DNA of 64,000 bases from a virus. A program made the position numbers and the translations under genes. The stretch lies in IMG/VR virus record IMGVR_UViG_3300036791_001436, positions 11,340 to 75,339 of that record. One strand, written 5' to 3'. The notes beneath the pieces were generated by a model, which saw nothing but the letters and a program-made list of their open reading frames with translations, ran no database searches and was not told the origin of the DNA. Every line of letters starts with the position of its first letter. Position 1 is the stretch's first letter. Shown here piece after piece: positions 6,422 to 48,200 of this stretch.

Positions 6422-6484
6422 TCCCGCGTGCGGGATTGCCCCTAGCGTAGTCCTTAGGTTTAGGGCTGCGAAGGAGATACAGAC

Positions 6485-6958: not shown

Positions 6959-7007
6959 GCCGCGCCGTCGTCACTTACTCGCACGCGGCACAACGAGGAG
7001 GCACTAC

Positions 7008-8036
7008 ATGTATGGGATCAACGGACTAGCTGCCTCCGCCGGAGTCAGTGTCGATATCGCCAGGATGAGGACCGATGGCTCTGTCGGTGCCTCTGGTTCG
7101 GTCGCGCAGCGCCTCCTCCAATCTGGGATGAACGTCCAGGCGCTGCGCACGAACGGCACCCTCAGGTACGACGAGTGGAAGTTGTACGACAAGGTAGTCG
7201 TCGACGTCGCTCAGGAACGTCTGGTGGTTACCCAGGAACTGCTGTCAAGGGGATTGTCCTACCCAATCCCCAACGCCCTAGGCGTCATGCAGATCCAATG
7301 GGAGACCATCAACGACCTCGAGCCGGCCGAGATGACGATGTCAGGGCTGAGCGAGGCGTCGAAGGACGAGATCAACTACGCCCTGAACTTCATGCCCGTC
7401 CCGATCATCCACAAGGAGTTCCAGCTGAACCTGCGTCAACTGGAAGCTGCTCGGAACCACGGCAACCCGCTCGACACGACCCAGGCAGAACTCGCCACCC
7501 GCAAGGTCGCGCAGTTCATCGAGGCGCTCATCTTCACCGGCGCCACGGTCTCGACGAACAACGGCAACATCTACGGCTTGATGAACCACCCCAACCGCAA
7601 CGTGGGTTCCGCGTCGGCGCCTTGGGGCGTGTACACCGCGACCCTCGGTGGTACGGTCACCGCCGACATTTCCGCGATGGAAGCCGCGCTCGTCGCGAAG
7701 CACATGTTCGGGCCGTACTTGCTCTTCATCCCCTACGCGACCTACATCGCCTGGGGACAAGACTACAAGACCTACGCCGACACGACGATCCTCCAGCGCG
7801 TCCTCGAGATGCCTGGGATCGAAGGTGTCATCCCGACGCAGAAGTTCACCGGCAACGGCGGACTCATGGTGCAGACCACCTCGGACGTCATCCAGATGGT
7901 CGACGGCATGCAGCCCACCCTCGTCGAGTGGGATACGCGCGGCGGCTTCGAACTGAACTACCGGGTCATGGCGATCATGCTGCCCCGGGTCCGCGCAGAC
8001 CAATATCTGCAGTCGGGCATCGCTCACTGGTCGTAA
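7008..8036 (+). CDS. Major capsid protein (HK97 fold, Linocin M18/encapsulin-like type)
   Basis: RTNGTLRYDEWK.YD..VV.VAQERL, PVPIIHKEF, IYGLMNHP. Strongly C/G-ending codons; position. Confidence 0.85.
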   Translation: MYGINGLAASAGVSVDIARMRTDGSVGASGSVAQRLLQSGMNVQALRTNGTLRYDEWKLYDKVVVDVAQERLVVTQELLSRGLSYPIPNALGVMQIQWETINDLEPAEMTMSGLSEASKDEINYALNFMPVPIIHKEFQLNLRQLEAARNHGNPLDTTQAELATRKVAQFIEALIFTGATVSTNNGNIYGLMNHPNRNVGSASAPWGVYTATLGGTVTADISAMEAALVAKHMFGPYLLFIPYATYIAWGQDYKTYADTTILQRVLEMPGIEGVIPTQKFTGNGGLMVQTTSDVIQMVDGMQPTLVEWDTRGGFELNYRVMAIMLPRVRADQYLQSGIAHWS

Positions 8037-22651: not shown

Positions 22652-23140
22652 CTAACCGAACTCCCAAGGGAAGACGACCCAATTATTCGGTATCTCGGTA
22701 CCAGGGAACGAGATCGGAGGGCGGTGCCCCTTGTAGAACATCACCGCAGTAGTGGCTTCAGGGAGTAGCCAGCGCGCCCAGGTCATAGTGCGCCCTGTAT
22801 CCCAGAGGTCGTCGACGATCAGCGAGTCCGGGTTGTTGTACTTGGCTCGGTATTCTGGCAGAGTCATCTGCGGGCGCGGGAGCAGCTCCCCTAGTCGACG
22901 ACCGTCCTTATACCCCATTACCCGAACGGATTCAAGGTTGGTCACGTTGAACCTATGGCTGAGCAGAAGGCCAGCGAACCACCCACCACGCCCTATAGCG
23001 AGCAATCGGTCAGGCTTGTACTTGTGCTCAAGCATAACCCTATGCAGGTGATTGACCGCTAGCTCCGCGGTCGCCCAACTGACGTATACCTTAGGTGCCG
23101 GCTCAGGAGCGACCGCGCGTGAGTTAAGCTCTGACGGCAT
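22652..23140 (-). CDS. Type I phosphoribosyltransferase (xanthine/guanine PRTase-like)
   Basis: AIGRGG, PRPP-binding motif LIVDDLWDTGRT, WVVFPWE C-terminus; GAAGGAG RBS before 23140. Confidence 0.85.
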   Translation of the reverse strand: MPSELNSRAVAPEPAPKVYVSWATAELAVNHLHRVMLEHKYKPDRLLAIGRGGWFAGLLLSHRFNVTNLESVRVMGYKDGRRLGELLPRPQMTLPEYRAKYNNPDSLIVDDLWDTGRTMTWARWLLPEATTAVMFYKGHRPPISFPGTEIPNNWVVFPWEFG

Positions 23141-23870
23141 CGAAGAACTCCTTCCGCAGAGGCGGGTTGGTGAGGAATCGTCCGCCACAGCGGTCGGTGA
23201 CAGTCTTGGAGTTTTGCTGTTGAGCGCCCCTGGCCTTCATGCACATGTGCGTTGCCTTGATGCACACAGCGATGTCCGTGGTGCCGAGGATGTATGCCAG
23301 CGCCTCGTAGATCTGTGCAGTCAGACGTTCCTGCACTTGAGGGCGCCGAGCGAAGAACTCTGCCACACGGGCGAACTTGGATAGGCCGAGGAGTTTGCGG
23401 TTGGGAATGTAGGCGATGTGCGCCACCCCGTCAATAGGCATCAGGTGATGCTCGCATAGACTCATGATCTGGATATCCTGCACCAGCACCATCTGGTCGT
23501 AGGCGCCGTGTGCTTCCTCTGGGGGAGGGGCGTTACTGCCGGTCCCTGTAGCGGCGGGGACTAGTACGGGCCGAAGCACACCATTCGGCACCACCGTGCA
23601 CTCAGGGAAGCGTTCGTAATCCAGGCCGGCACAGAACTCCTCAATGAACATCTTCGCATACCGGGCCGGTGTACGCATTAGGGAAGGATTGGTCAGGTCC
23701 AGCCCAAGATGGTTCAGGGCGATGCACAAGGACTCTTCGATGTAGGACTCTGCCAGTTTGAAGTCCGGGTCGTCCTTGAGAGGGGTCTCGAACCCCATCT
23801 TGACAAGGTGTTTGCGGACCTCCTCGCCTAGGGCGGGGTTGGTGATGTACTCGCTACCGAGTCGTGCCAT
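23124..23870 (-). CDS. folE: GTP cyclohydrolase I
   Basis: TP.R.AK, SLCEHHL.P, GLSK..R, RPQVQERLT, HMCM.ARG. Confidence 0.95.
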   Translation of the reverse strand: MARLGSEYITNPALGEEVRKHLVKMGFETPLKDDPDFKLAESYIEESLCIALNHLGLDLTNPSLMRTPARYAKMFIEEFCAGLDYERFPECTVVPNGVLRPVLVPAATGTGSNAPPPEEAHGAYDQMVLVQDIQIMSLCEHHLMPIDGVAHIAYIPNRKLLGLSKFARVAEFFARRPQVQERLTAQIYEALAYILGTTDIAVCIKATHMCMKARGAQQQNSKTVTDRCGGRFLTNPPLRKEFFDAVRA

Positions 23871-24153
23871 TCGTAGCCTCTGCCTGCTTGCGTTGCGCCA
23901 TTTGGTCCATCTTGCGGCGGCGCTTGATTTCCCTGCGGACGAACCATAGAGCTTTCTCTAGGTCTTCGTACGGGCAAGGGTGCTTCTCGTCACACCGCCA
24001 GAGGTATTGCATGGCGCTGCCGATGTTGAACGGCATGTGCTCGACTATCTCGATGCACTCTACGCCCGAGGGGTGATGGTTGTAATGAGGCGGGTGGTTG
24101 ATCATATCTACCACCGCAGGCTCGTGTTCACGTGGAACGACTGTCATTGACAT
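23854..24153 (-). CDS. DUF3310 protein (T7 gp1.7-like putative nucleotide kinase)
   Basis: D.INHP.HY, ECIEI, G.A..YLWR, EDL.KA.W. Confidence 0.8.
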   Translation of the reverse strand: MSMTVVPREHEPAVVDMINHPPHYNHHPSGVECIEIVEHMPFNIGSAMQYLWRCDEKHPCPYEDLEKALWFVRREIKRRRKMDQMAQRKQAEATNGTTR

Positions 24154-26602: not shown

Positions 26603-26941
26603 CTACTGTGCGACGCGTTCAATCTCTGTGAAGGTATCCGTCTGCGGACGGATCGGCGGTGCAGTGCGGATCAGAGCGCGAAGGGTTACCACCTCGCATA
26701 GAGTATGGCCCTTCTTGCGGTGGCCACCCATCACCACGCGATCCATGAGCGTTGCCGCTCGATCTGCGAGTCGTGGGCTGATCGAGAACTGCCCAAGGTT
26801 CTTGATGGCGGTTATCAGCACCCCTACGGTGAGTGCCCCGCTCCCGCGGAAGTATGCGTGCGACAGGATCCAGAATTGGGTAGTGGCCTGTTCGTTGGAT
26901 TCTGGGTCATAGGCGGGCTTCGGTTGTAGTGACTTTATCAT
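26603..26941 (-). CDS. Hypothetical protein
   Basis: ORF in operon orientation upstream of nrdJ. Confidence 0.5.
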   Translation of the reverse strand: MIKSLQPKPAYDPESNEQATTQFWILSHAYFRGSGALTVGVLITAIKNLGQFSISPRLADRAATLMDRVVMGGHRKKGHTLCEVVTLRALIRTAPPIRPQTDTFTEIERVAQ

Positions 26942-27075
26942 TGTTGGTCTTCCCCTATCCTCAACGAGGATGAGCCCCCAGCCAGCGGTACCTGACTGAG
27001 GGCTCCCCTTGTGTCACCTCGCGGATGTGTGCCGGCTTACAGGCACCGCAAGGCTTAGCAAGTCTGCGTTACCCG

Positions 27076-27582
27076 CTATGCCTTCGGCTGCGGGAGATCG
27101 GCCGGATGCGTTGGATGCGAGTCGGCGTCGATCACCACCCAGCGGAAGCCGACATAGGGGATGTAGACGAGGATCATGACGTCGCCCTGCACCCCTCCGA
27201 GCGGCGGCCACACGGTGCCAGGCGGCAGCGCGATGGGATGCTCCGGCGTTCCCGTGACAACCGGCGGCAGCGTGTTGTCCACGTGCGGCGGTGCTTCACC
27301 TCCCCAGATCCCCGGGGGAGGCGGAGGGAGAGTGTTGTCGGGCCCGACAGGCGGCGGCCAGAGACCCACAGCCGGCGGCAGTCCCTGATCCGGATGGGGA
27401 GGCGGAGCACCACCCCAGATCCCCGGAGGCGCTCCACCTGGGGCGATCGGGTGGCTCGGTGCCCCTGGACCCGGCCAGACGCTCGGCGGAGAACCGCCAG
27501 GTGCAATGGGGTGGGTAGGCGTTCCGCCTCCGCCACCGCTGTGTGCCAACGGTGTGATCAGGGCGAGGAAGGGTTCAGACAT
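27076..27582 (-). CDS. Pro/Gly-rich repeat protein (HPIAPGG / PPGIWGG / DNTLPP repeats)
   Basis: GGAG RBS, own promoter, C/G-ending codons. Confidence 0.7.
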   Translation of the reverse strand: MSEPFLALITPLAHSGGGGGTPTHPIAPGGSPPSVWPGPGAPSHPIAPGGAPPGIWGGAPPPHPDQGLPPAVGLWPPPVGPDNTLPPPPPGIWGGEAPPHVDNTLPPVVTGTPEHPIALPPGTVWPPLGGVQGDVMILVYIPYVGFRWVVIDADSHPTHPADLPQPKA

Positions 27583-27677
27583 AACTTCTACTCTCTCCTA
27601 AGTAGTGGCGTCTGCCACGGTTGAACGCACTTGTCTCGCCCCCGCCGTACTCTTCGGTCTCACTATATGCTATAAGT

Positions 27678-27757: not shown

Positions 27758-30169
27758 CTATGCCGCCTCCTGTAAGGGTTCCCACTCCTGCATTGCGTCC
27801 GAGTCCCAACGTTCACCGAACTTCGCATCGGCGACGAACGGCACTCGTGTAAGGCCCCAATCTCTTGGTACTCTGGCCATCACCCCGAGCACGTACGTTA
27901 GCGATTCGTCCAAGGCCTGACGGTCCTGACGGATCTTGAAGTAGATGCTGTCGTGCACTAGGTTGCAGATCCTAGCATTCCACCGCTCGCGAAGCACGGG
28001 GGCCACCTCGCAGGCGGCCACGGTGTTGATGTCGGACGCCGTGCTTGAGTGGGGGTAGTTCGCGGCCTCGTTCTCAAGGTCGTGAAGGTTCTCGTAGCTG
28101 ACCACACCCCACCTCTTTTTGCGTCCGAAGTTGGTGATCATCGTCCATCCTCGTGCAGGGGCTTTGCGCGAGTCCATGATGAACTCCTTTGCCCGAGGAA
28201 ACTGGGCAAACCACCCATCGATGTACTCTTGCGCCACTTCGGTCGTGGTGTCGAATTCCTCTGCCAAGGTCCATGCAGTGCGCCCATATACGATACCAAA
28301 CGTGACCGCTTTCGCTCTCATGTACTGCTCGTGGTTGTAGTTCTCCCCAAAGTATCGTCGTGACACAACCTTGTGGATGGAGGTCTTACCCTCCACGTAG
28401 ATCTCGCATAGGGAAGGGTCGCCGCTCATAACAGCGAGGCATCGGAGCTCGGCTTGGTTCAGGTCAGCCTCAACTAACCACTCATCGGGGTCCGCAATGA
28501 ACTGCCGACGGATGAAGGGACCGCGCTCCATGTTCTGTAGGTTGGGGTCCTTAGAGGCTAGACGTCCATTCACAGTCCCATGGATCAGGTAGCTCGTATG
28601 AACCTTCCCGTCCTTGTATCTCCACCCGAGCGCGGGCTTAACGTAAGTGCCGTGGCGTTTGGCGAGCTTCCTTACGCGCTGGATGGGGCGCACAATGGGA
28701 TGATTGTGCTTGCGCTGGATCTGGATGATCGCCTTGGCGTCTGTGGAAGTGCCGATGGGGCCTAGCTTCATCCGGTTGTATAGGAGATCCCCCAGCTGTG
28801 CTGGGGAGTTGACGTTGATCGGGGCCCCGCAGTACTTGATAGCGTATGGCTGGATCTTGGCAACTTCCGCTTCGATCTCATCCTTGCACAGCTTGTCGTT
28901 CGTTGCGACTACTTCTGGGTCTAGGAGGATACCTTCCAGTTCCACCTCTGCCAGCATTTCGGAGGCTGGGATCAGTACACGGCGGTACAGCTTGGAGAGG
29001 TGTGGGTCCTTAGTGATCCGGGGCTGCTGCGCAAAGAATATCTGGTGCGTCTTGGCAATGTCATATGCTTGGTACTTGTAGAGAGCCTCTCTAGGTACGA
29101 GAGCATACGAGCGGTCGGCTTTCTTGTACCGCTTCAGGTATTGGTCTAGTTCCGCCTTGTGATGCGGAGCACCGAGTTCCCGTAGGGCAATTTGATCCAA
29201 GTCGTGCAGACCGCGCGTCTCGTTGAGCGCATAGGACTGTAGCATAGTGTCTTCATCGACACGAGCTCGTATGCCTTCTGCCCGGAAAAACTTAACGTCA
29301 AACTTGCCGTTCTGCCAGATCCATCTGGGTCCACGGGACTCCATGAGCCTCCGGGTAAGAGATTCGGCCCGCCAGATAAGGCGGTTCGGGATGATGTAGA
29401 CATGCTCCCCATTCCACGTTACACCATGTGATATCATCCAGTCGCTGAGGAAGTCGAACCCAGAGGTCTCGATGTCCCCAGTCAGGTACGGTTGCTTGAT
29501 GGCCTTATGTACGAACGCGGCATACTCTGGGATAGTTTTGATCACTCTGTAGGTAGGTGGCTCCCACACATCTGGTGGGCGGTCTTGTGCTAAGAGAACT
29601 GCCTTCTTCAGATCCCGCTGCCACTCCGAGTACCCTCCCCCACCTTGCTTCATCAGGAACGCAGGGTGCACCGCCAGTACTACTCCGTGCTTGGCGAGTG
29701 AGGTGGGGATGACTTGCCCACGCACACGGGTAATCTTGATGTTGGTAATGCCGGTTAGGCTTACGGCTGCATGCTGCCCTAGTGCCAGAATGACTTTGCG
29801 AGGGTGCGCGCGGATCTGGTTGATGAGCCGCTCGTGGCAAATGCTCACAGCCCGTGGCATCCGATCGTCGTCCTTCACCTTCGGGAAGCACTGGATCGCA
29901 TTGAGGATGAGCGGTTTGATGTGGGGAGGCAGACCTACCTTTGCCAGGATGGTCTCTAGCATCTCTCCTGAGGGCCCAACAAACGGGACCCCACGTGACA
30001 GCTCTTGCGCCCCTGGGCTCTCTCCGACTATCACGAATGGAGAATCAGCGGGGCCCCTTCCCCCTACTTTGAGCCCTCCGAAGGGACACCCATTGCAGCC
30101 TACTGGCCGCTGGTCTAGAGGGACCCTAGGAATGAGGCGTAGGGCGGACGCTAGAGGATGGACAGCCAC
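27758..30169 (-). CDS. polA: Family A DNA polymerase with N-terminal family-4 uracil-DNA-glycosylase-like domain and 3'-5' exonuclease
   Basis: UDG: CxxC, GESPG, PFVGPSG, HPA. Exo: DIET, QNGKFD, YQAYD. Pol motifs: A DLNQAELR, B RAKAVTFGIVYG, C VHDSI. Confidence 0.93.
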   Translation of the reverse strand: MAVHPLASALRLIPRVPLDQRPVGCNGCPFGGLKVGGRGPADSPFVIVGESPGAQELSRGVPFVGPSGEMLETILAKVGLPPHIKPLILNAIQCFPKVKDDDRMPRAVSICHERLINQIRAHPRKVILALGQHAAVSLTGITNIKITRVRGQVIPTSLAKHGVVLAVHPAFLMKQGGGGYSEWQRDLKKAVLLAQDRPPDVWEPPTYRVIKTIPEYAAFVHKAIKQPYLTGDIETSGFDFLSDWMISHGVTWNGEHVYIIPNRLIWRAESLTRRLMESRGPRWIWQNGKFDVKFFRAEGIRARVDEDTMLQSYALNETRGLHDLDQIALRELGAPHHKAELDQYLKRYKKADRSYALVPREALYKYQAYDIAKTHQIFFAQQPRITKDPHLSKLYRRVLIPASEMLAEVELEGILLDPEVVATNDKLCKDEIEAEVAKIQPYAIKYCGAPINVNSPAQLGDLLYNRMKLGPIGTSTDAKAIIQIQRKHNHPIVRPIQRVRKLAKRHGTYVKPALGWRYKDGKVHTSYLIHGTVNGRLASKDPNLQNMERGPFIRRQFIADPDEWLVEADLNQAELRCLAVMSGDPSLCEIYVEGKTSIHKVVSRRYFGENYNHEQYMRAKAVTFGIVYGRTAWTLAEEFDTTTEVAQEYIDGWFAQFPRAKEFIMDSRKAPARGWTMITNFGRKKRWGVVSYENLHDLENEAANYPHSSTASDINTVAACEVAPVLRERWNARICNLVHDSIYFKIRQDRQALDESLTYVLGVMARVPRDWGLTRVPFVADAKFGERWDSDAMQEWEPLQEAA

Positions 30170-30984
30170 TGCCGCACCGCCCTGATGTTGTCAAGTGCGT
30201 GTGGGTGGTCGTCCAGAGTTCCTTTCTCGAACCAGTTCTTCGGGCGAGGCTCTTGCTTGTGGCTCGGGCTTAGTTGTTGGGGATGGCGTATAGGGACTGC
30301 CGAGTCAATTCCTAACACCCCCGTCTGTCGAGCCGCCTGTAGATCATCCCATATGTTGTCACTGAACCCCAGCAGGTGGATGTTGATGTCCGGCCGTATG
30401 AGATGGATGTACTGCACCGCCGCTGTTCGCATTGGCCCTAGTAGGCGAGGTACTCCTGCCCAGGTGATCAGCGGGAAGGCCTTGGTGTCCAGTAGGAAAG
30501 CGTCTGCGATGTTGGTGAACTCCTCCCAAGAGGGGCCATGCGTCACCAGCATGAATCCTTCGCTGAGGTCCACGATGTCACTTTGTACCCACTCACTGTA
30601 GGCGATCGTGCTACGGAGAGCGGTAATGTCGGCGCTGCCCATCTCATCTGGAAGTACTGGCACTAGACGGAGGCGCGAGAGCCGATGGGCGTGGATGGGT
30701 TCGGCTGTGGAGATGGCCTTGAGCGCGGCCTCCATCACGTCTATCGGGATGGGTATCCCCAACTCCACGATGCTGTTGTCCATGATCACGACAACGTCCC
30801 CGCCTGCAGTGGTGAGGATGTATTCTCTGAACCTAGCGGTGAACCGTTCTGGGAACTCCAGTACGTGGTGCGCCAGGAGGAGATGGTAGTCCCCGAATAC
30901 AAAAGGGGACATCTCCTCCAGGATCTGGATGGGAGCAACAGGTGCGAACTTCGGGTGGTGGGTGGGGTGGTTGTTGATTGTCAT
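30151..30984 (-). CDS. Divergent TGT/DpdA-like TIM-barrel protein (putative deazaguanine transglycosylase)
   Basis: Likely start overlaps the queE stop (ATGA). Motifs IMDNS, LPD, VTHG, IHLLG and GIDS parallel TGT-superfamily motifs. Between queE and polA. Confidence 0.6.
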   Translation of the reverse strand: MTINNHPTHHPKFAPVAPIQILEEMSPFVFGDYHLLLAHHVLEFPERFTARFREYILTTAGGDVVVIMDNSIVELGIPIPIDVMEAALKAISTAEPIHAHRLSRLRLVPVLPDEMGSADITALRSTIAYSEWVQSDIVDLSEGFMLVTHGPSWEEFTNIADAFLLDTKAFPLITWAGVPRLLGPMRTAAVQYIHLIRPDINIHLLGFSDNIWDDLQAARQTGVLGIDSAVPIRHPQQLSPSHKQEPRPKNWFEKGTLDDHPHALDNIRAVRQWLSIL

Positions 30985-31832
30985 CGTGCGCGCTCGTTTC
31001 CCCAGATGAGTACGTGAAGTTGTGGCAGGTACTTCCAGTGTGCCAGTCGCCAGTCGTTCAGGAAGTCCTGCTCCAGAGAGTCCTTGAAGTCGCGGAGTAG
31101 CAGTTTGGGGATATCTTCGTCCCCCTCTGCTGCCTGAAATCCTCTGGCGGGAATTGGTGGCCACGGATTGCCGACAGAGAGGAATCGCTCCTCTCTTGGG
31201 AAGACGTAGTAGTCCAGGAGTGCATCCACTGTGATGGCGAACTCTAGGTCCAGTGCCGAGAAGACGATGACTTTGATGCTGGTCATGGTGCCACTGCAAC
31301 GCATCAGGAAGTCGGAGAACTTATCTGGCTCGAACTTCTCTCCCATGCCAGGACCCTTTGGTGAGATGGTCACCTGGTTGCACAAGGCCACCCAGTCTTG
31401 CCAGATGGTCCCTTGGGTCTCTAGGGCGACCTTGAATCCTCGTTGTTGTAGGGAGCGGACTAGATCACCCCCTTCTTCCCAGATGGCTGGGTTGCCTCCG
31501 CTCAGAGTCACCCACTGAGCTAGCCGACCGCATTTTTGGGCGACCTCTTCCGCTATTTCCTCCGGGTACATCCACGTTGCGTGCGCGTGGATAACTTGAG
31601 GGATCACTGCGAACAGGGAGTCGCACATCCTGCAGCGGTAGTCGCAACCTCCTAGTCTGACGAACATCGTTTTGGTGCCAATCATGACACCCTCGCCTTG
31701 GATGGTAGGGCCGAAGACTTCCATCACGGGGAGCTTGCCTCGCTTCCCTTCGTCCTGATCGGGGAGCGGTGCTGCCTTGAGCTGGGCTGCCTCAGTCGGG
31801 TCGGATCTCGTAGCTTGCGGAATTTCCGTCAT
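30981..31832 (-). CDS. queE: 7-carboxy-7-deazaguanine synthase (radical SAM)
   Basis: EVFGPTIQGEG, CDYRCRMCD, LSGGNP, ETQG, ISPK, PQLH. Confidence 0.93.
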   Translation of the reverse strand: MTEIPQATRSDPTEAAQLKAAPLPDQDEGKRGKLPVMEVFGPTIQGEGVMIGTKTMFVRLGGCDYRCRMCDSLFAVIPQVIHAHATWMYPEEIAEEVAQKCGRLAQWVTLSGGNPAIWEEGGDLVRSLQQRGFKVALETQGTIWQDWVALCNQVTISPKGPGMGEKFEPDKFSDFLMRCSGTMTSIKVIVFSALDLEFAITVDALLDYYVFPREERFLSVGNPWPPIPARGFQAAEGDEDIPKLLLRDFKDSLEQDFLNDWRLAHWKYLPQLHVLIWGNERAR

Positions 31833-32250
31833 GTTCCGACACTGTCACTTTCTCTAGTTGTACCCGCCCGTCTGATTGGGAGGCGATGAAGGAGTAGGCG
31901 TGTTGGAAGATATGGGCAGCGAAGGCCTCGATCCCTACTTGTGGGAGCACTATGAGGTCTGCCGCTTTGGCGATCTGGAGTTCCCTGAATGTGCTGATCA
32001 GAGGATCGTCGGCAGCCACTAGCAGCTTATGGTCGAACTGCTCCTGGAGCCACATCTTCAGTTCCTTGAGCCCGCCGAAGTCCTGCACCCAGCCATTCTC
32101 GTCAAGGGCAAACGCCGAGAACTCGAAGTGGATCTTCAACGCATACCCATGCAGGTAGTGGCAGTGGGAATCCGATCGCCATTGCCTGAAGCAGCAGCTT
32201 AGACCTTGTTCGTGCCCATAGGTCTTGCTGCTAGTGAACCTATGTTCCAT
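31792..32250 (-). CDS. queD: 6-carboxy-5,6,7,8-tetrahydropterin synthase
   Basis: C..LHGY, DFGGLK, FDH, V.EH..NSA. Confidence 0.9.
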   Translation of the reverse strand: MEHRFTSSKTYGHEQGLSCCFRQWRSDSHCHYLHGYALKIHFEFSAFALDENGWVQDFGGLKELKMWLQEQFDHKLLVAADDPLISTFRELQIAKAADLIVLPQVGIEAFAAHIFQHAYSFIASQSDGRVQLEKVTVSEHDGNSASYEIRPD

Positions 32251-32255
32251 GGCTG

Positions 32256-33050
32256 CTACTCCGCCAGGTAGACGGTTGGGTCGTGGACGATCGCATCGTG
32301 GAACGCTTCCCTACGTGCGATACAGGTTGGGCAGACACCGCAGTGCCGGCTCTCACCTGCATAGCAGCTCCAGGTGTCTGCGAAGTCGACGTCCAGGGAG
32401 TCACCGAGTTGCACGACTTCGGACTTCACCATGTGCACCAAGGGAACGCGAAGGCGCACCTTCCCGTAGGTGCCGATCTGGATGGCTGCCGCTTGCGCAC
32501 CGAGGAACTCCAGAGTGCAGTCTGGGTATGCGTCTCTGGCTGCATCGTCGGCGTGCATCCCAGCGTAGAGAATGGCGTTGGCCTGTGCTAGGCTCTTCTC
32601 TGCTGCCATCACCCAGGACTGTGCCCTCGCTGCCATGATGCTGAGCATTGTCCCGTTGCGATAGCTGACGTAGGTTGGGGAGATGCCTTCGGGAAGCTCC
32701 CCGTACGACATCTGGGGGATGGGTTCGTTCACTTCCTTGTCCACCAACATTCCCGTGAAGGACCCTTGGATGTTGACAACGATGTGCTCGGCCTCGAACT
32801 TCTTGGCTTGCCTGCGGGCGTACTCGATCTCCTTCTTGTGCCGTTGCCCATAATCGAAGGTCAGGCACTCGATCTCAGCACTGGGGAATTGGTCACGAGC
32901 GAACGCCAGGACGGTGCTGGAGTCGACTCCTCCCGACAACATGACGAAGCACTTGGTGACCACGAGCGGGGGCTTGGGTCTCGGATCCCTAAATGTCGAA
33001 GTCAGGGTCTGGGGTAGGTCTGACTCTGTGGAGGTAGGGTGATCGACCAT
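32256..33050 (-). CDS. queC: 7-cyano-7-deazaguanine synthase
   Basis: SGGVDS, FDYGQRH, TYV..RN, YPDC, TWSCY, CGVCPTC; no GAT domain fused. Confidence 0.95.
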   Translation of the reverse strand: MVDHPTSTESDLPQTLTSTFRDPRPKPPLVVTKCFVMLSGGVDSSTVLAFARDQFPSAEIECLTFDYGQRHKKEIEYARRQAKKFEAEHIVVNIQGSFTGMLVDKEVNEPIPQMSYGELPEGISPTYVSYRNGTMLSIMAARAQSWVMAAEKSLAQANAILYAGMHADDAARDAYPDCTLEFLGAQAAAIQIGTYGKVRLRVPLVHMVKSEVVQLGDSLDVDFADTWSCYAGESRHCGVCPTCIARREAFHDAIVHDPTVYLAE

Positions 33051-33297
33051 GTTGGCCTCTAGCTTGTGGGTCGGAGGGTGGAGACTGGGCAAGACGTCGG
33101 AGCTCGGAGATGGGGATGCGATAGTTGCGCCCCATGTACTCGCCCTTGATCTGCCCAGTCTTGATCCAGTTCAGTACCGTGTGGTAGTGTACGTGGAGTA
33201 ACGGTGCAGCGCGACGAGGCGATATCCATCCTCGGAGGTTGAGGATCTCCGCCGCCGTGAGACCGGCGACTTCTTCTTCAATGTCGTTGGGGGACAT
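32989..33297 (-). CDS. HTH_17/excisionase-like DNA-binding protein
   Basis: AA.LL.VH..TV.NWIK.GQI......YRIP. Confidence 0.75.
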   Translation of the reverse strand: MSPNDIEEEVAGLTAAEILNLRGWISPRRAAPLLHVHYHTVLNWIKTGQIKGEYMGRNYRIPISELRRLAQSPPSDPQARGQHGRSPYLHRVRPTPDPDFDI

Positions 33298-33334: not shown

Positions 33335-33865
33335 TTACAAAGGGTTGCTGAAACCGCCCTGCGCCGCACCTTGCACCGGTGCCAGGACGTCCTTCACCTC
33401 GTTGCGGCGCTCGCCTTGGTAGAGGCGGATCCCCACCTTGGCGCGCAGCGGCTTGCCGAGGAGCAGGCCTTCGTCGGCGACGAGCTTCGGGTTGAAGTTC
33501 GTCACGATCAGTTCCGGTGCGACCTTCATGAGGAAGGACTTGCCACGGGCGATCATGTTCTCCGCCCAACTAACGTTCAGGAAGAGCTTCCTGTTGACGA
33601 GGTCCTTGGACTCGTCGTCGTCGACGGCCAGCTTGATCGCCCACATGGGCTTGCCGGCGGCATTGGAGAGCTTGTACTCGCACTCCTCGATCGTGCTGGG
33701 GTAGAGTCCAGCCGGGAGCACAGGGAAGCCCTTGTCGGCTTCGACGTCGGTGAGGTCGACGGTGAAGCCTTCACCGCCCTCGTATTGCAGGCCTTGGGTG
33801 TCCTGCTCGTGCTCCTGCTCTTGAGACAGGTCGACTTCGTTGCCGTGTTCGTCGGTCATGGACAT
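33335..33865 (-). CDS. Single-stranded DNA-binding protein (DUF669-like)
   Basis: F.VLP.G.Y...I..C, S..GKPM, Y.GE.RNEVK; next to Sak4-like gene. Confidence 0.75.
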   Translation of the reverse strand: MSMTDEHGNEVDLSQEQEHEQDTQGLQYEGGEGFTVDLTDVEADKGFPVLPAGLYPSTIEECEYKLSNAAGKPMWAIKLAVDDDESKDLVNRKLFLNVSWAENMIARGKSFLMKVAPELIVTNFNPKLVADEGLLLGKPLRAKVGIRLYQGERRNEVKDVLAPVQGAAQGGFSNPL

Positions 33866-38157: not shown

Positions 38158-38495
38158 GGGAGTTCGATCCCGTACTTCACTTTGAACCCCTCAACGAACC
38201 TGTTCAGTTCGTCGGCGATCTGCCCCATGCGGATCTCATCTGCCGGGGTGGGTTCTTCACTACCAGGGTCGAGCATTGTCATTATGGAACCGAGGAGGTG
38301 TTGGGCTCCAGCGAAGAATGCCATGCGCATTTCCTCCAGTTGGATCTCCGGGGCGTCAGGAGGAATTGCCATCTCTCGCATGCCCAGCCACCCTGCTTCG
38401 ATCAGCAGGCCGTCGGCAACCGCTTTCCTCGTGACCTTGGCGACAATTGCCTGTAGGCGTTCTCTGTCTTGAGCTTCGCGCTCTTCGTTGGTCAT
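38154..38495 (-). CDS. Hypothetical phage protein
   Basis: Coupled ORF; Q..E.R.AFFAGA motif. Confidence 0.6.
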   Translation of the reverse strand: MTNEEREAQDRERLQAIVAKVTRKAVADGLLIEAGWLGMREMAIPPDAPEIQLEEMRMAFFAGAQHLLGSIMTMLDPGSEEPTPADEIRMGQIADELNRFVEGFKVKYGIELP

Positions 38496-39208
38496 GTCAG
38501 GTTCTCCGTTGCTCGGTGGTCGGGGATGTCAGGGAAGTATTTCATGATCGCATTCCAGCACAGGTTTGCGATATGACGGTGCTCCTTCTGGGAACCTTCT
38601 TTTGTGCGCACACGGGTGTAGTGGTACCAGTCTCGTATGCGCCCGTTGAAGTACATCTTGGTTGGGGTGTTCCCTTCTGGGAGCACTACTCGGGCCTGCT
38701 CCTTAGCAATGCCTCTAGCGAGCGCCTGGTTGTAGACAGCGATGGCTCGGAGCCAGATTTCCCCTTGGGCGGCTAGCCACCACTCTTGGTCGCCGAGTTG
38801 TTGAGGATCACGAAGGTCAGGTTCTAAGGAACCTTGGCGGTTGATGGGGTCTTGGTATCGTAGTTCCCTGAGGATAGGACCTCTGATATCGGTCCCAACC
38901 TCAGCATAGCGCTGGGAGAATTCCTGGGGCTTTAAGGAGGAGTGTCGAAGGATCTGTCGCCCGATGTCACGAGTGGCGAGGATCTCGCATGTGGCATCCA
39001 CCATCTCCAGTGGGGACCACTCCTCTCTCCTGATCAGACCGCGGATCAGTTTTGCTCCAGTCCTGTGGTTGGTCTGGTTGGCTTCGTTGCTCACGCGGGC
39101 ATAGAATGCCAGCAGCTCCTGAGGGGTCTTGACCCCGTACACCTCCTGCAGTTCTTGGGTCGGCATGGAGATGGAGGTCACTCTTGCGTCATAACCGACT
39201 ATGGTCAT
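38492..39208 (-). CDS. thyX: Flavin-dependent thymidylate synthase
   Basis: ARVSN, WSPLE, QILRH...QEFSQRY, KEQAR.VLP, QKEH. Confidence 0.92.
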   Translation of the reverse strand: MTIVGYDARVTSISMPTQELQEVYGVKTPQELLAFYARVSNEANQTNHRTGAKLIRGLIRREEWSPLEMVDATCEILATRDIGRQILRHSSLKPQEFSQRYAEVGTDIRGPILRELRYQDPINRQGSLEPDLRDPQQLGDQEWWLAAQGEIWLRAIAVYNQALARGIAKEQARVVLPEGNTPTKMYFNGRIRDWYHYTRVRTKEGSQKEHRHIANLCWNAIMKYFPDIPDHRATENLT

Positions 39209-39411
39209 TCCTCGTCCTCGTACTCCAGGTCACTGATGTGGCACGAGCGGTAGCGAGGGAATTCGCTCCCCTCTGGTTGCCACCGCACCCAGGCTGCGCC
39301 TGCTGGATAGGGACACTCTGGGTCGGTGGCCAAGACTAGGACGCGGACGCCCGCTGGCAGCACCTGGGTGGGGCCCACCCACTTCGCCCAGCGTTGCTTG
39401 TGTTCCTGCAT
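39205..39411 (-). CDS. Hypothetical protein
   Basis: Short coupled ORF MQEHKQRW... Confidence 0.5.
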   Translation of the reverse strand: MQEHKQRWAKWVGPTQVLPAGVRVLVLATDPECPYPAGAAWVRWQPEGSEFPRYRSCHISDLEYEDEE

Positions 39412-39412
39412 G

Positions 39413-39706
39413 TTAGTGCACCGCTTCCTTCTCGACGAAGATGTGCCAGACGTACTCGCTGATAGGCGGCTGGAGGACGGTGTCAACGTAGTCCTCGGGC
39501 TCGACATGAACTTCCGTGGTGTCTAGGTTCCACCCTGTGCCTACTATCCAGACCCTACGTGGCATTAAGGGTTGGCCCTCATCTACGAACGCCCACAGAG
39601 TCAGCTGTGGCCCTTGGAACGCTACCTTCAATATCTTGGAGCCCTTAGGCAGACGTAGCGTCTGCTGCGAAGTCAGGTTCAACGGGTACTTGAAGATGAT
39701 GGCCAT
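39413..39706 (-). CDS. Conserved small phage protein (IFKYPL...LWA.VD...GTG...VWH.F type)
   Basis: Recurrent phage motif pattern. Confidence 0.6.
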   Translation of the reverse strand: MAIIFKYPLNLTSQQTLRLPKGSKILKVAFQGPQLTLWAFVDEGQPLMPRRVWIVGTGWNLDTTEVHVEPEDYVDTVLQPPISEYVWHIFVEKEAVH

Positions 39707-39707
39707 G

Positions 39708-39974
39708 CTATTGTCCTGGGCGTCCTGTCTTGATTGGGCGATTAGGGTTACGGCCTTTGATGCGCGCCACACGAGGGCTCACCTGCTTCGGGAGTTCGGG
39801 GCCCCTCAACTTTGGGATGGGATAGAAGTGGCGACATAGGTGTCCTTCCGGACCTATGTGTAGCACGATCAAAGGCGGTATTGCGTGCTCTTGCCCACGA
39901 GCGAAGCACTCGCATAGGTTGTGCAGCGTGCACTCATGGTTATGACAGTAATCCTGCTCAGAGTTCGCGGCCAT
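39708..39974 (-). CDS. Cys/His-rich hypothetical protein
   Basis: C....C.....C.C.....C pattern. Confidence 0.5.
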   Translation of the reverse strand: MAANSEQDYCHNHECTLHNLCECFARGQEHAIPPLIVLHIGPEGHLCRHFYPIPKLRGPELPKQVSPRVARIKGRNPNRPIKTGRPGQ

Positions 39975-40551
39975 TAGGGGTGTAGCCCTTGTTGTCTTCC
40001 ACTGGCGGTTCCAGATCCCAGTCTGTAGATTCTGCCGCATGGCGTGCGTAGTTGACTGCCTTGTCGAAGCTTCCGAACCCTAGAGCATAGTCCCGTTGGT
40101 TGTTCTGGGATTGGATCTTGAACACCTGGTACGGGTTACGGCGGGCTTCTTTGTTGTAGCGGACTTCGAAGTAGTTCACGCTGTCGGTGTACCCTGTCCG
40201 GTATGCCGTGCGGGTTATGAGGGACGTTGCCTCTGCTGGTATGAACGGTGGCAACACCTCTCGCCAGGGGGTCCTAACTGGGGTCACCTCTGCCTCTTTC
40301 CCCATCGCAGGGCTTGCCTCTGCCTCTTTCCCCACCTTGGCTGGCTGCTCATCGTTCAGGTCAGCTATCAAGTCTGCTACGTTGCTGAAGCTCTTAGTCT
40401 CGCCGGCCTCAGCGGCCCTGATAGCCTCTTGCGTCTCAGCGTTGGGCTGAGGTTCAGGCTCTGCTTTGATGTACGCCGGCCCGCTCCTGAACGAGGCTGG
40501 GGGCAGAGCGGGGGTCCACTTCCCTGTCTTGAGCCAATTGATCAGTCCCAT
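39958..40551 (-). CDS. Hypothetical protein containing a DinJ/RelB-like C-terminal peptide
   Basis: PNAETQEAIRAAEAGETKSFSNVADLIADLN. Confidence 0.55.
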   Translation of the reverse strand: MGLINWLKTGKWTPALPPASFRSGPAYIKAEPEPQPNAETQEAIRAAEAGETKSFSNVADLIADLNDEQPAKVGKEAEASPAMGKEAEVTPVRTPWREVLPPFIPAEATSLITRTAYRTGYTDSVNYFEVRYNKEARRNPYQVFKIQSQNNQRDYALGFGSFDKAVNYARHAAESTDWDLEPPVEDNKGYTPNGREL

Positions 40552-40557
40552 GGTGTT

Positions 40558-41589
40558 TTACCCGATGTCTATTGGGTCGCGGAAGCCTTTGAAGACTGGC
40601 GTCCGCGGCGCGGTGTAGCCCCCACCGTATCCTTGGTGCTTAAATTTGACCGTCTTCCCGATCAGCTGCTCCCGGAGGAGCCATAGGGATTCCTTTTCTG
40701 CCATGCTGAGACCGTCGAACACCCCGATGCTGAAGTGGATCTGGAGGTTCTGGGTTTCGTTGCCTAGGGGTGGGTAGTCCATTACTACCTGCAGAGCCCC
40801 TAGGCAGTCTAGGGCTACCAGGTTCTCCTGGTGCGCGGAGCGGCTTGTGAGCCCGAGTTCGTTCTCCGTCTGAGGGTTGTTGTTCTGGTAGCGGGGCTCA
40901 TACCCTACGACCACTGCCTCCGCATCCTCGAACCGCTTCAGCTTCGTGAGCAGACCCTGTTTGGCGGTTGATCGACCGAATTTGTACCCTCCGATGCTGC
41001 GCCGCACGATCGCCCCTTCCCACCCCTGCTCGAGGAATTTGCGTTCCAGTTCGTAGATGTCGCCCAGTGTCGCTGCGGTCTCGTTCGGGACTACCACGAT
41101 CTGCGCGCAGTACTCGCCGTTGGTGCCTCGCACCTTGATGGCCTTGTTGGCCACGAGGTCGAAAGAGCGTTCATGGGAGGACAGTTCGTTGATTAGCATC
41201 TGAGGGCGCCACCTGCGGATCGAGAAGTCCTCCGGCCACATGATGTCGAAGAGGTACACGGTGAACTCCGGGCTCCCCTCTTCGCTTCGGATCCCGGACA
41301 TCGATGTTCGGAACACCGTTGGGTCGTAGGTGTGTCCAGAGATCACCTCGCCATCGCAGTTCATCAGTTCGAAGTGGAAGTCCTGCGCGAACTGTTGCAG
41401 GTACTTGTTAGCGTGAGGTTTCCACGAACGGCTCCTGGCGATGCCGTCACGGTCGAAGACCACCCGCATCCCGTCGATCTTCGGCTGCACGTAGAGGAAC
41501 TTGTCTTCCGCTAGGTGCGCGTGTACGATCTGCTCGTCGAACTTCTGCGCCGCGAGCATCGGCCTGATCTGTGTGTTCTCAGTGGTCAT
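40558..41589 (-). CDS. ATP-dependent DNA ligase
   Basis: PMLA, PKIDGMR (KxDG), DGEV, FDI, EGAIVR, KLKRF.DAEA, PR.PVF.GFRD. Confidence 0.92.
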   Translation of the reverse strand: MTTENTQIRPMLAAQKFDEQIVHAHLAEDKFLYVQPKIDGMRVVFDRDGIARSRSWKPHANKYLQQFAQDFHFELMNCDGEVISGHTYDPTVFRTSMSGIRSEEGSPEFTVYLFDIMWPEDFSIRRWRPQMLINELSSHERSFDLVANKAIKVRGTNGEYCAQIVVVPNETAATLGDIYELERKFLEQGWEGAIVRRSIGGYKFGRSTAKQGLLTKLKRFEDAEAVVVGYEPRYQNNNPQTENELGLTSRSAHQENLVALDCLGALQVVMDYPPLGNETQNLQIHFSIGVFDGLSMAEKESLWLLREQLIGKTVKFKHQGYGGGYTAPRTPVFKGFRDPIDIG

Positions 41590-41593
41590 GGCC

Positions 41594-41938
41594 CTACCTC
41601 CTCCGGTGCCTGACAGGGTCGATCACGTTCAGCAGATCGTACGCATCGTCGTCGAGGTCGAATCGATCCGTGTTCCCATATGCCCATCGGCAATACTTGG
41701 GGTCTGCTCGGATGAGATCCTCTACGAGGACTCCTGCGTACTTCCCGAACTTGATAGTGTCGCCGAGACTGTACACTGTTCGTATGGAGGTGAAGCTACG
41801 GATCATCACCTCGGCGAAGTGGTTAGGGGTGATCCCTCGTTCCGCCGCTGTGTTGTAGAAGTCCTGAGCCACCTCGAATGGCACATCGATGACGATGCGC
41901 TGCACCTCTGGCTGGTTGGTTAGTGTCAGGGATCCCAT
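41594..41938 (-). CDS. Small protein with FGKY.G (exonuclease-X C-terminal-like) motif
   Basis: IKFGKYAG...DLI..DP.Y..W. Confidence 0.6.
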   Translation of the reverse strand: MGSLTLTNQPEVQRIVIDVPFEVAQDFYNTAAERGITPNHFAEVMIRSFTSIRTVYSLGDTIKFGKYAGVLVEDLIRADPKYCRWAYGNTDRFDLDDDAYDLLNVIDPVRHRRR

Positions 41939-41972
41939 GGTTGGCCTACCGCCTCCTTTTCGTCGTCATTAT

Positions 41973-42001
41973 ATTATATAGCACCCAACGAGTGACCTCA
42001 A
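41973..42001 (-). promoter_or_regulatory. sigma70-like promoter
   Basis: GACTC-TTGAGG-N17-TATAAT. Confidence 0.7.
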
Positions 42002-42672
42002 GAGTCCAAATTGTGGTTGCCATTGTTTCTGTTGGCTCGGGCCTTGTCGATCATCGCCCGGACCTCTGGTGACATCTTCCGCTCATGCCCCTTAGGGGTG
42101 TATCCCGATTCTACCAGGCTGTACTTTGGTGGCCGGTCTTCTAGGATGTTGATGATCTCCTCCGCCCACATCTCCGACAGCATCTGGTTCTCTGCCGTTG
42201 CCATCTTCCCGTCCACCGTCAAGCTGACGGTTTGGAGTACGGCACCAAACTCCTCCAGCCGTTGTCGCGATCGGACTAGGGGGAAGAAGCTCACCCGCTT
42301 TCCTTGGGCAATTGGTGCTAGTGTAGGGACCGAACAACAGATGGCAGAGGTCATCTTGCCCTCGCCTTGAAACCCCCTCAGTAGTTGCTGCAAGTGGTCG
42401 TCCGTCCAGTAAGCCTCTGTGTCGGCCATGTTGCCTGACACCACTACGATCCCGTCTAGGGTTGGAGTGGAATGGGCCGTCACCGCCTCAAGAGGGCTGA
42501 CTTGATAGACTGTCCTCTGGATAGTGTTGGGACGTAGTGTCAGCTCATCCCGGATTAGGGTTTCTTGCGACACGACTTCGAAGGAGTGCCCCTTTTTCTG
42601 GAGCACCCCCAACAGGGTCCACAGCTCATGGCCATTGTACCTCTTCGCACATACAACTAGCACTTTGGACAT
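41998..42672 (-). CDS. DJ-1/PfpI family protein
   Basis: KVLVV....Y...E, nucleophile elbow SAICCS, GKR.S, VDGK.ATA. Confidence 0.8.
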   Translation of the reverse strand: MSKVLVVCAKRYNGHELWTLLGVLQKKGHSFEVVSQETLIRDELTLRPNTIQRTVYQVSPLEAVTAHSTPTLDGIVVVSGNMADTEAYWTDDHLQQLLRGFQGEGKMTSAICCSVPTLAPIAQGKRVSFFPLVRSRQRLEEFGAVLQTVSLTVDGKMATAENQMLSEMWAEEIINILEDRPPKYSLVESGYTPKGHERKMSPEVRAMIDKARANRNNGNHNLDS

Positions 42673-42692
42673 GGCTGTGGCTCCTGTAGGGG

Positions 42693-43094
42693 TTAGACCG
42701 TAGTGTCGGTTGCTTGGGCGCTGCGCGCTTCGACTTCTTCGGGGGTGATCGGCACTGCGGCCACATCACGCTCGGCGCCTAGGTTCCCTTCTGTGGTTGC
42801 CATATCCGGCTTCCAGTTGGGGATCACGTTCCCCTCGTCGTCCATATCGAGACGCATCAGGTGCAGATCGCCGCCGGCCGCGAAGAGTTTGATCGGCAGA
42901 CTGTGGCTGTTGATGTACGCGGTGAGTACGGAGCGAAGATAGGCTGGATTCTTTCCGAGCCCGGTGATGTCGATCTTGGCGACCCTGTAGTTGGTCTCCA
43001 TGAACCCCTTGATGATCGGGTAGGAAACCCTACCACGCCGACCAAGACGTTCAGTGGGGACATCTGCGGGATCGACTTCGACGAACTTGACCAT
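42693..43094 (-). CDS. Hypothetical protein
   Basis: AAGGA RBS before MVKF; own promoter. Confidence 0.6.
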   Translation of the reverse strand: MVKFVEVDPADVPTERLGRRGRVSYPIIKGFMETNYRVAKIDITGLGKNPAYLRSVLTAYINSHSLPIKLFAAGGDLHLMRLDMDDEGNVIPNWKPDMATTEGNLGAERDVAAVPITPEEVEARSAQATDTTV

Positions 43095-43144
43095 TATGCT
43101 ATTCCTTGACCTCTTGCCCTCAGGCATATTGATATAATACATAA

Positions 43145-43173
43145 ATCATATATGTATCAGATGTAGAAGTCAA
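43145..43173 (-). promoter_or_regulatory. sigma70-like promoter
   Basis: TTGACT-N17-TATGAT in an AT-rich island. Confidence 0.7.
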
Positions 43174-43202
43174 CAACTAATATATGTTCATCATAAAAAT
43201 AC

Positions 43203-43772
43203 CTACGTCGGAGGTTTACCTTCCCAGTCACTACGCTTATTGCGCCCCTGCTCTTCGCTCGTAGCCCAACGGACTTGACGTGTCTTGCCGTCAGCTTGGT
43301 ATGGTTGATAGTTGCCACGAGGATCGACTCTGTCTAGGGTATGATCCTTACTAGGTGCTGGCCCCATGAAGGCTATGAAGTTCGCCCAACCTTGTGGGTT
43401 ATCCCTGTGCCATTCAGGACATACGATAACTCCCTTGGCTCCATAGTACGGATACCCTACGTGGTCTGGATGGTAGCATCTACGCATCATCATCCACCAA
43501 ATACCCCGCTCACGGGGGAAGGGGTTGGCGTCCGCGTAGGTGATGCAGCCGCAGCTGCGCTTTGGCCATTTTGGGCGGAGGAGGTAGAATGCTGGCACGG
43601 ACTCACGCTTACCACAGTCGCACTCAACCCTCCACCGGGAGTTCTGTGCTCCCTTGACGCTCACCCGCTGGATCACCGTTAGGTATCCAAACCTGGCTCC
43701 GGGGTACACTCCAACTTTACGCGCGCGCTCCGTACGCTTGTCAGCCTTGTGCTTGTGAGTGGCTTGTGGCAT
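43203..43772 (-). CDS. Free-standing HNH homing endonuclease
   Basis: G.RFG.LTV, CDCG, SCGC, M..RC, YG.KG..VC.EW, TLDR.D..GNY, RWAT..EQ.RN. Confidence 0.85.
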   Translation of the reverse strand: MPQATHKHKADKRTERARKVGVYPGARFGYLTVIQRVSVKGAQNSRWRVECDCGKRESVPAFYLLRPKWPKRSCGCITYADANPFPRERGIWWMMMRRCYHPDHVGYPYYGAKGVIVCPEWHRDNPQGWANFIAFMGPAPSKDHTLDRVDPRGNYQPYQADGKTRQVRWATSEEQGRNKRSDWEGKPPT

Positions 43773-48166: not shown

Positions 48167-48200
48167 TCCGGCCTATCCCTATCTATTCCGTTGCGGTTAC
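48167..48200 (-). repeat. 34-bp dispersed direct repeat, copy 2
   Basis: tccggcctatccctatctattccgttgcggttac. Confidence 0.8.

Follow-up and report, generated by a model that had tools for sequence, protein, structure and literature searches.

A divergent, unannotated protein encoded between viral queE and polA genes is predicted to be a DpdA3-type transglycosylase

We analyzed a 64,000-nucleotide stretch of viral DNA, hereafter the window (positions 11,340 to 75,339 of IMG/VR virus record IMGVR_UViG_3300036791_001436, a 75,339-bp record rated 100% complete by CheckV), and focused on P0001, a minus-strand gene at 30151..30984 including its stop codon that encodes a protein of 277 amino acids between the 7-deazaguanine synthesis gene queE and a polA gene. 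Sequence comparison places P0001, a divergent and unannotated protein, within the already described DpdA3 subfamily and not in a new one, an assignment drawn from its open reading frame (ORF), its structural model and its homology to DpdA3. We consider it likely that P0001 is a DpdA3-type transglycosylase with the fold of tRNA-guanine transglycosylase (TGT) that replaces guanine in phage DNA with 7-cyano-7-deazaguanine (preQ0) or its amide, 7-amido-7-deazaguanine (ADG).

Sequence relationship of P0001 to DpdA3 and the TGT superfamily

The DpdA3 subfamily was defined from Cellulophaga phage phiST CGPG_00065, which HHpred connects to PF01702 with 98.8% probability, together with relatives in Campylobacter phages and in Flavobacterium phage immuto, and in the DNA of these defining phages guanine is fully replaced by a 7-deazaguanine (Hutinet et al. 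2023, NAR 51:9214, PMC10516641). We compared a profile of the P0001 family with these proteins using hhalign and observed strong matches to a 120-sequence phiST-type profile (98.9%, E 1.9e-17, 233 columns, residues 13-275 against 3-258), to the immuto protein immuto26A_65 annotated as "DNA guanine transglycosylase" (98.75%, E 1.5e-16, 230 columns) and to gp056 of Campylobacter phage CP220 (97.9%, E 5e-13, 193 columns). This full-length homology argues against the suggestion of an earlier note on this DNA, made from its letters, that the protein might form an unclassified DpdA subfamily. A protein of Weizmannia phage Youna2 that matches the P0001 family in profile comparison (98.9%, E 2.3e-17, 198 columns) serves as a hub, connecting to phiST by blastp (3e-13) and to immuto (2e-9), Brevundimonas phages (5e-5) and CP220 (0.02) by tblastn. 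The single phiST sequence matched our first family profile, A1, only weakly, and the connection was strong only with the phiST-type profile. The corresponding hhalign comparison with the DpdA4 protein HVTV1_69 was not significant (1%, E 0.054, 115 columns).

Connections to TGT enzymes of known structure emerged from wider alignments. Profile A1 reached no TGT among Protein Data Bank (PDB) sequences, and TGT matches in the PDB needed alignments that included the Youna2, BSP7, immuto, CP220 and phiST proteins. When a DpdA3-wide hidden Markov model (HMM) of 21 sequences was searched against all PDB sequences, the top two matches were DpdA (7ui4, E 1.4e-4) and archaeosine TGT (E 0.0066), and Z. 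mobilis TGT variants filled the list below them.

P0001 resembles the DpdA3 proteins phiST CGPG_00065, immuto26A_65 and CP220 gp056 in being a TIM barrel of ~260-280 amino acids with no Zn site, in carrying invariant D-N, D, [Q/H]-G, H-x-x-G and D-S motifs, and in being the sole TGT-like gene of a genome with 7-deazaguanine synthesis genes and a nearby DNA polymerase gene. The divergence of P0001 is nonetheless considerable: identity to published DpdA3 members is ~16-19% in the multiple alignment, the P0001 clade has conserved motifs of its own (FAPVAP, HLLLAHH, W-x-G-I-P-R and LGFSD-x-x-x-DD), and its phage encodes every enzyme of the preQ0 pathway, QueC among them, whereas the pathways of phiST and CP220 end at 7-carboxy-7-deazaguanine (CDG) or ADG. 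No Pfam, PHROG or NCBIfam model covers the P0001 clade.

Predicted fold and active site

We built an AlphaFold2 model of P0001 with the family alignment and obtained a confident prediction (predicted local distance difference test score 92.7, predicted template modeling score 0.91) of an eight-stranded TIM barrel composed of eight β/α units. The first 30 matches in a Foldseek search of the model against the PDB were all Z. mobilis TGT (E 1.7e-5), and VIA-align superposed the model on that enzyme with a Z-score of 15.8 and a root-mean-square deviation of 3.6 Å over 233 residues. In a scan of 48,161 PDB representatives, ranks 1-3 were taken by DpdA 7ui4 (Z 14.7), archaeosine TGT 1iq8 (Z 14.7) and bacterial TGT 3unt (Z 14.5), where Z differences within 1 unit fall in the tie range of the structure-scan tool. 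The third match of the model in BFVD was an uncharacterized 259-amino-acid protein of phage phiST (E 1e-9, TM 0.66/0.70) that is CGPG_00065, the founding DpdA3. Structural comparison with TGT, as proposed in the earlier note, thus returned a TGT-like TIM barrel with the TGT superfamily in the first three places.

We scored conservation across a 21-sequence alignment spanning the whole DpdA3 set and found L37, D69, D113, H203, G206 and D227 to be invariant and N70, T121, G150 and R186 to be near-invariant. In the model, D69, D113, H149-G150 and D227 lie at the C-terminal ends of strands 3, 4, 5 and 8, as described for DpdA. D69 (codon 30778..30780, minus strand; motif MDNS) closes strand β3 (residues 64-69) and is the predicted general acid/base, since HMMER pairs LDNS with VDSGSFQ of 1iq8 and thereby places D69 at Asp95 of the P. 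horikoshii archaeosine TGT; the superfamily counterparts at this strand end are D102 in Z. mobilis TGT and D95 in DpdA. D227 (codon 30304..30306, minus strand; motif GIDS) stands at the end of β8 and is the predicted nucleophile: HMMER pairs IDS with FDSA of 1iq8, so that D227 corresponds to Asp249, and the residue also aligns with Asp256 of DpdA, Asp280 of Z. mobilis TGT and, by hhalign, D264 of E. coli Tgt. Both residues are essential in DpdA by mutagenesis, with Asp95 acting as acid/base and Asp256 as nucleophile (Gedara et al. 2023, PMC10164549). The invariant D113 (codon 30646..30648, minus strand; motif LPD) follows β4 and is aligned by hhalign to E. coli Tgt D143; judged from these alignments it is probably, but not certainly, equivalent to the base-binding aspartate of the superfamily (D156 in Z. 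mobilis TGT, D130 in DpdA). H149-G150 (codons 30535..30540, minus strand) aligns with His181-Gly182 of S. Montevideo DpdA and with Q187-G188 of E. coli Tgt. The barrel model and the alignment of D69 and D227 with the catalytic aspartates of archaeosine TGT and DpdA support the description of P0001 in the earlier note as a putative TGT/DpdA-like enzyme.

The same note had read the DNS and HG motifs and the missing Zn cluster as hints of altered base specificity, and on this point the comparison speaks against it. D-N-S/G is near-invariant in DpdA3 and constitutes a DpdA3 signature, all DpdA3 proteins are ~260 amino acids long and lack the Zn subdomain, and H-G is the state of bacterial DpdA; because these features are DpdA3 or DpdA norms, they offer no particular grounds for expecting an altered base specificity. 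The choice between DNA and free nucleotides as substrate, also raised in the note, is a fair question, but one that concerns DpdA3 in general. Most members of the P0001 family have Q-G where P0001 has H149-G150. We considered H149 as a mark of new specificity and rejected it, as histidine occupies this position in bacterial DpdA and also in Youna2, BSP7 and HVTV1_69.

Comparison with characterized systems further defines the minimal architecture of P0001. Bacterial DpdA from S. Montevideo (7UI4) is its best PDB match in sequence and its tied best match in structure, and shares the predicted double-displacement chemistry. However, bacterial DpdA has 413 amino acids and four insertions, including a 128-residue Ins8 anchored by a CxCx2Cx22H Zn site, none of which is present in P0001, and it requires the ATPase DpdB, of which P0001 has no counterpart. 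Canonical bacterial and archaeosine TGTs (PF01702) share the fold and the catalytic aspartates with P0001 but differ in that P0001 has no PF01702 match (E≤0.1), lacks both a Zn site and the C-terminal elements for tRNA binding and is encoded in a DNA-replication context. DpdA4 proteins (DUF6610, PF20314; Halovirus HVTV-1 gp69) are likewise short, divergent and TGT-like, occur in viruses with preQ synthesis genes and have motifs colinear with those of P0001, but are specific to archaeal viruses and longer (386 amino acids). P0001 itself did not match PF20314, and 25 of 125 members of its family gave sub-threshold matches to that model, the best at 3e-4.

Gene boundaries and motifs

The P0001 reading frame extends on the minus strand from an ATG at 30984-30982 to 30154 and ends in a TAG stop at 30153-30151. 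Its ATG and the queE stop (TGA, 30983-30981) share the tetranucleotide ATGA. A longer form starting at TTG 31299 would overlap queE by 315 nucleotides, and homolog N-termini fall 2-12 residues ahead of the conserved FAPVAP motif, which begins at P0001 residue 13; we therefore place the start at 30984, as the earlier note had done for this 277-amino-acid frame. At the other end, GTG 30169 is the sole canonical polA start upstream of the uracil-DNA glycosylase (UDG) motif and lies 19 nucleotides inside the end of P0001, so that both the coupling to queE and the overlap with the polA start described in that note are borne out by the coordinates. All six motifs that the note listed are present and correspond to conserved columns of the family: IMDNS (residues 67-71), LPD (111-113), VTHG (147-150), WAGVPR (175-180), IHLLG (202-206) and GIDS (225-228). 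P0001 contains no cysteine at all, and a Zn-Cys cluster is therefore impossible, in agreement with the reported absence of such a cluster from the C-terminus.

Genome context and predicted base

P0001 is embedded in a minus-strand block that begins with genes for an SNF2 helicase, a PD-(D/E)XK exonuclease, Sak4, a DUF669 protein and a helix-turn-helix (HTH) protein, continues through queC, queD, queE and P0001, and proceeds after P0001 to a UDG-polA fusion, two small ORFs (one on the plus strand) and genes for a class II ribonucleotide reductase, a DUF3310 protein, FolE and a purine phosphoribosyltransferase (PRTase). The preQ0 genes comprise folE (23124..23870, minus strand; PF01227, 1e-56), encoding GTP cyclohydrolase I for the first step of the pathway; queD (31792..32250, minus strand; PF01242, 1e-19; PHROG QueD-like, 3e-42), encoding 6-carboxytetrahydropterin synthase; queE (30981..31832, minus strand; TIGR03365, 214 bits and above cut-off; PHROG QueE-like), a radical-SAM gene encoding 7-carboxy-7-deazaguanine synthase; and queC (32256..33092, minus strand; PF06508, 2e-48; TIGR00364, 146.8 bits and just below the cut-off of 150.3), encoding 7-cyano-7-deazaguanine synthase. 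The phage encodes no QueF, the sole signal being a T-fold echo within folE, and no amidotransferase. The presence of FolE, QueD, QueE and QueC without QueF or an amidotransferase therefore points to preQ0 or its amide ADG as the base, and the product in phage DNA is most likely dPreQ0 or dADG.

Directly downstream, the UDG-PolA fusion (27758..30169, minus strand; PF03167, PF01612 and PF00476) is the replicative polymerase, an 803-amino-acid protein composed of domains for family-4 UDG (residues 38-176), 3′-5′ exonuclease and family A polymerase. We examined conservation of this arrangement in 25 IMG/VR contigs with a P0001 homolog, each 45 kb or longer, 13 of which are at least 90% complete. 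QueC and a family A polymerase were each found in all 25 contigs, canonical TGT (PF01702) in none and QueF above cut-off in one. By hand arithmetic on the coordinates, the polymerase frame starts within about 0.3 kb downstream of the homolog in ~22 of the 25, with contigs G005, G007 and G013 as the exceptions. These tallies define preQ0 synthesis, a DpdA3-like gene and PolA as the conserved core. The window arrangement recurs in Brevundimonas phages, Youna2 and BSP7, and the pairing of a DpdA3-like gene with PolA, often with overlap, is likewise seen in Youna2 and BSP7. A six-frame search detected no PF01702 domain anywhere in the 75-kb genome, and the domain is also absent from phiST, Youna2, BSP7, StAshley and MA9V-3.

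Proposed function and alternative explanations

The homology, fold, conserved residues and gene context of P0001 are direct results of the comparisons above, and from them we infer that the substrate is DNA, which base is inserted, by what mechanism and how far replacement goes. For a DpdA3-type transglycosylase in this setting, phage FolE, QueD, QueE and QueC would make preQ0 from GTP, and P0001 would exchange guanine in phage DNA for preQ0 or ADG by the double-displacement mechanism of TGT enzymes, with D227 predicted to attack C1′ to give a covalent enzyme–DNA intermediate and D69 predicted to serve as general acid and then as general base. The minimal barrel of ~270 amino acids would keep the base pocket and the catalytic aspartates and dispense with both the Zn subdomain and the long insertions that TGT and bacterial DpdA carry, and its translation would be coupled to that of queE upstream and of PolA downstream, inside the replication module. 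The predicted outcome is 7-deazaguanine DNA resistant to host restriction, and by analogy with characterized DpdA3 phages the replacement of guanine may be extensive or complete.

Several observations weigh against this proposal. DpdA3 activity was not reconstituted in E. coli by Hutinet et al. (PMC10516641). In hhalign comparisons, the P0001 family alone gave no significant match to a narrow gammaproteobacterial TGT profile (0.2%), and the mixed alignment A2, which combines the P0001 family with Youna2, BSP7, phiST and MA9V-3, matched bacterial TGT weakly (16.5%). HMMER pairs D113 with Asp136 of 1iq8, six residues off Asp130. In the PDB structure scan, pyruvate kinase and other generic TIM barrels appear from Z 13.9, and because the margin of the TGT superfamily over them is less than 1 Z unit, the fold alone indicates a TIM barrel that fits best with TGT and not membership in the superfamily. 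P0001 is also strongly acidic, with ~33 aspartate and glutamate residues against 21 lysine and arginine residues by hand count, and is devoid of all the insertions by which TGT and DpdA hold nucleic acid. To our knowledge, activity has yet to be demonstrated for any DpdA3 protein; with the failed E. coli reconstitution, this makes "DNA transglycosylase" an inferred function for the whole subfamily.

The acidity of P0001 and its lack of nucleic-acid-binding insertions would suit an alternative that retains the family and the chemistry but moves the reaction ahead of replication, with P0001 exchanging guanine for preQ0 on dGMP or dGTP and the adjacent PolA incorporating the modified deoxynucleoside triphosphate. 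Exchange on nucleotides would allow complete guanine replacement without scanning of finished DNA. In the window, StAshley, Youna2, BSP7 and ~22 of 25 contigs the gene lies directly upstream of PolA, frequently with an overlap, and this position agrees with the idea, as do the DpdA3 loci of immuto, which includes genes for a PRTase, an NTP pyrophosphohydrolase and a thymidylate kinase, and of CP220, where DpdA3 is flanked by an HD/AAA protein and a thymidylate kinase. A further link to nucleotide metabolism comes from Rhizobium phage RHph_I1_18, in which the 422-amino-acid protein EVB91_073 (5956-7224) joins a DpdA3-like barrel (residues 1-240, 98.7%) to a DUF3310 domain (residues 353-411), a domain whose PHROG families are labeled "nucleotide kinase"; the gene is annotated solely as "DUF3310 domain-containing" and sits between queD/folE and a dUTPase gene. 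The ADG nucleoside found in CP220-infected cells and the inactivity of DpdA3 in an E. coli DNA assay can be read in the same way (PMC10516641). We nevertheless regard exchange on free nucleotides as unlikely. The supporting enzymes are not conserved in the clade, with a PRTase in 8 of the 25 contigs, DUF3310 in 3 and thymidylate kinase in none; the window yielded neither a MazG nor a dGTPase; and the purine PRTase could just as well salvage the guanine set free, turning it back into GTP for FolE. In the literature, insertion is taken to follow replication and not to precede it. This alternative also requires a substrate without precedent, as we know of no TGT-superfamily enzyme that acts on mononucleotides.

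A related proposal, doubtful but worth keeping in view, is that DpdA3 minimal barrels, the P0001 clade included, work together with the downstream PolA on either deoxynucleotides or nascent DNA at the fork, and not post-replicatively. If true, this would be a new phage route to complete guanine replacement and, if the substrate is not a polymer, would give the TGT superfamily its first enzyme of that kind. The near-universal pairing of the DpdA3-like gene with PolA and the DUF3310 fusion provide handles on how DpdA3 phages replace all of their guanines.

Other alternatives to DNA modification by P0001 fare less well. A queuosine- or archaeosine-type transglycosylase that modifies host or phage tRNA to tune translation is very unlikely: phages sometimes carry queuosine genes and the closest characterized structural relatives of P0001 include tRNA enzymes, but P0001 has no Zn subdomain, no C-terminal tRNA-binding elements and no PF01702 match, its gene is coupled to PolA in a replication module, and its relatives in phiST, immuto and CP220 belong to phages with modified DNA. 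It is similarly improbable that P0001 is a TIM-barrel enzyme functionally unrelated to TGT that shares the fold and nothing more; generic barrels score less than 1 Z unit from the TGT family and no curated HMM recognizes P0001, but sequence profiles connect to DpdA (1.4e-4) and to archaeosine TGT (0.0066) with catalytic residues in register, QueC co-occurs in 25 of 25 contigs and these genomes contain no TGT-like gene other than the homolog. Least probable of all is attachment of 7-deazaguanine to a protein such as the neighboring polymerase, after the manner of the TGT-family enzyme Cap10, which links a nucleobase to protein (10.1101/2025.04.06.647259). Cap10 (9ntn_B, Z 12.4, rank 28) appears among the structural matches and the conserved PolA pairing is compatible with such a role, but Cap10 scores below generic TIM barrels, the sequence links lead to DpdA3, DpdA and archaeosine TGT and not to Cap10, and DpdA3 phages, whose DNA demonstrably contains 7-deazaguanine, encode no further transglycosylase.

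Family size and distribution

We identified 355 homolog clusters at 90% identity in a word-indexed search and at least 2,251 clusters at 50% identity in an exhaustive profile search (E≤1e-3), 479 of them with E≤1e-30. The homologs are ~250-290 amino acids long and align end to end, and because hundreds to thousands of clusters align over their full length with the P0001 motifs as conserved columns, these motifs are far beyond chance. None of the P0001-family clusters found carries a name or a Pfam domain; searches with the P0001 sequence by itself drew no match from Pfam, PHROGs, NCBIfam or the PDB sequences; and no phage matched the 14-kb region by megablast. We also looked for fused forms longer than 582 amino acids and found none, which is weak evidence against their existence. 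The P0001 family is thus a large clade missed by every curated library, and its recognition as DpdA3 flags phages with probable 7-deazaguanine DNA, a modification that affects restriction, CRISPR and nuclease sensitivity as well as sequencing and cloning behavior.

Clear homologs of P0001 in GenBank phages are limited to two, in Brevundimonas phages StAshley and MaInes (43-44% identity), where the protein is annotated as "hypothetical protein" and the gene order queC-queD-queE-(small ORF)-X-polA is that of the window. No P0001 homolog is annotated as DpdA among the records found. All 17 contigs of a winter "ssDNA" virome prepared after treatment with a dsDNA-specific DNase mapped to these two dsDNA phages (PMC10070969), a dominance that would fit nuclease-resistant modified DNA, although the authors did not discuss it. 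StAshley and MaInes, the only cultured relatives, offer test cases that can be grown for DpdA3, a subfamily never reconstituted.

By structure, the nearest Atlas cluster (TM 0.78, 275 amino acids) is 95% "Bacteria", mainly Actinomycetota, and the P0001 family may therefore also reside in prophages or bacterial genomes. The Pfam "DpdA" model PF23859, present in 17% of members of a neighboring Atlas cluster, was rejected as a descriptor, as it has no match in the P0001 genome, phiST, immuto, Youna2 or StAshley.

Other genes of the replication module

The purine PRTase-like gene adjoining folE (22652..23188, minus strand) matches PF00156 at 23.2 bits, below the cut-off of 26.3, and is closest to xanthine PRTase NF006613 (6e-15, also below cut-off). 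Its product could recycle guanine freed by base exchange or ribosylate the deazapurine. The folE and PRTase genes are also paired in StAshley and in Flavobacterium phage immuto. The Pfam match of FolE itself begins only at residue 121 of 248, leaving ~120 N-terminal residues unexplained, and queC would gain ~46 N-terminal residues if a TTG start were used. Between nrdJ and folE lies a gene for a 99-amino-acid DUF3310 protein (23854..24153, minus strand; PF11753; PHROG families labeled "nucleotide kinase").

Two ORFs occupy the interval between polA and nrdJ, one of 112 amino acids (26603-26941, minus strand) and one of 199 amino acids (27025-27624, plus strand); neither has a Pfam or NCBIfam match, and the 112-amino-acid ORF also has no PHROG match. 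Other DpdA3 phages carry a MazG/dUTPase-like gene near the position corresponding to this interval. PolA open frames in related contigs are, like that of the window, long (765-1094 amino acids), and this frame length suggests that an N-terminal extension of PolA is common among relatives.

Between Sak4 and queC are the genes for the DUF669 protein (33338-33865) and the HTH protein (32992-33297). Elsewhere in the replication module, the minus-strand region 38492-43772 encodes ThyX, an ATP-dependent DNA ligase, a DJ-1/PfpI-family protein, a DUF7352 protein and an HNH endonuclease, and an 823-amino-acid protein with a DUF3854 (Toprim-like) segment, encoded at 48197-50668, is probably a primase.

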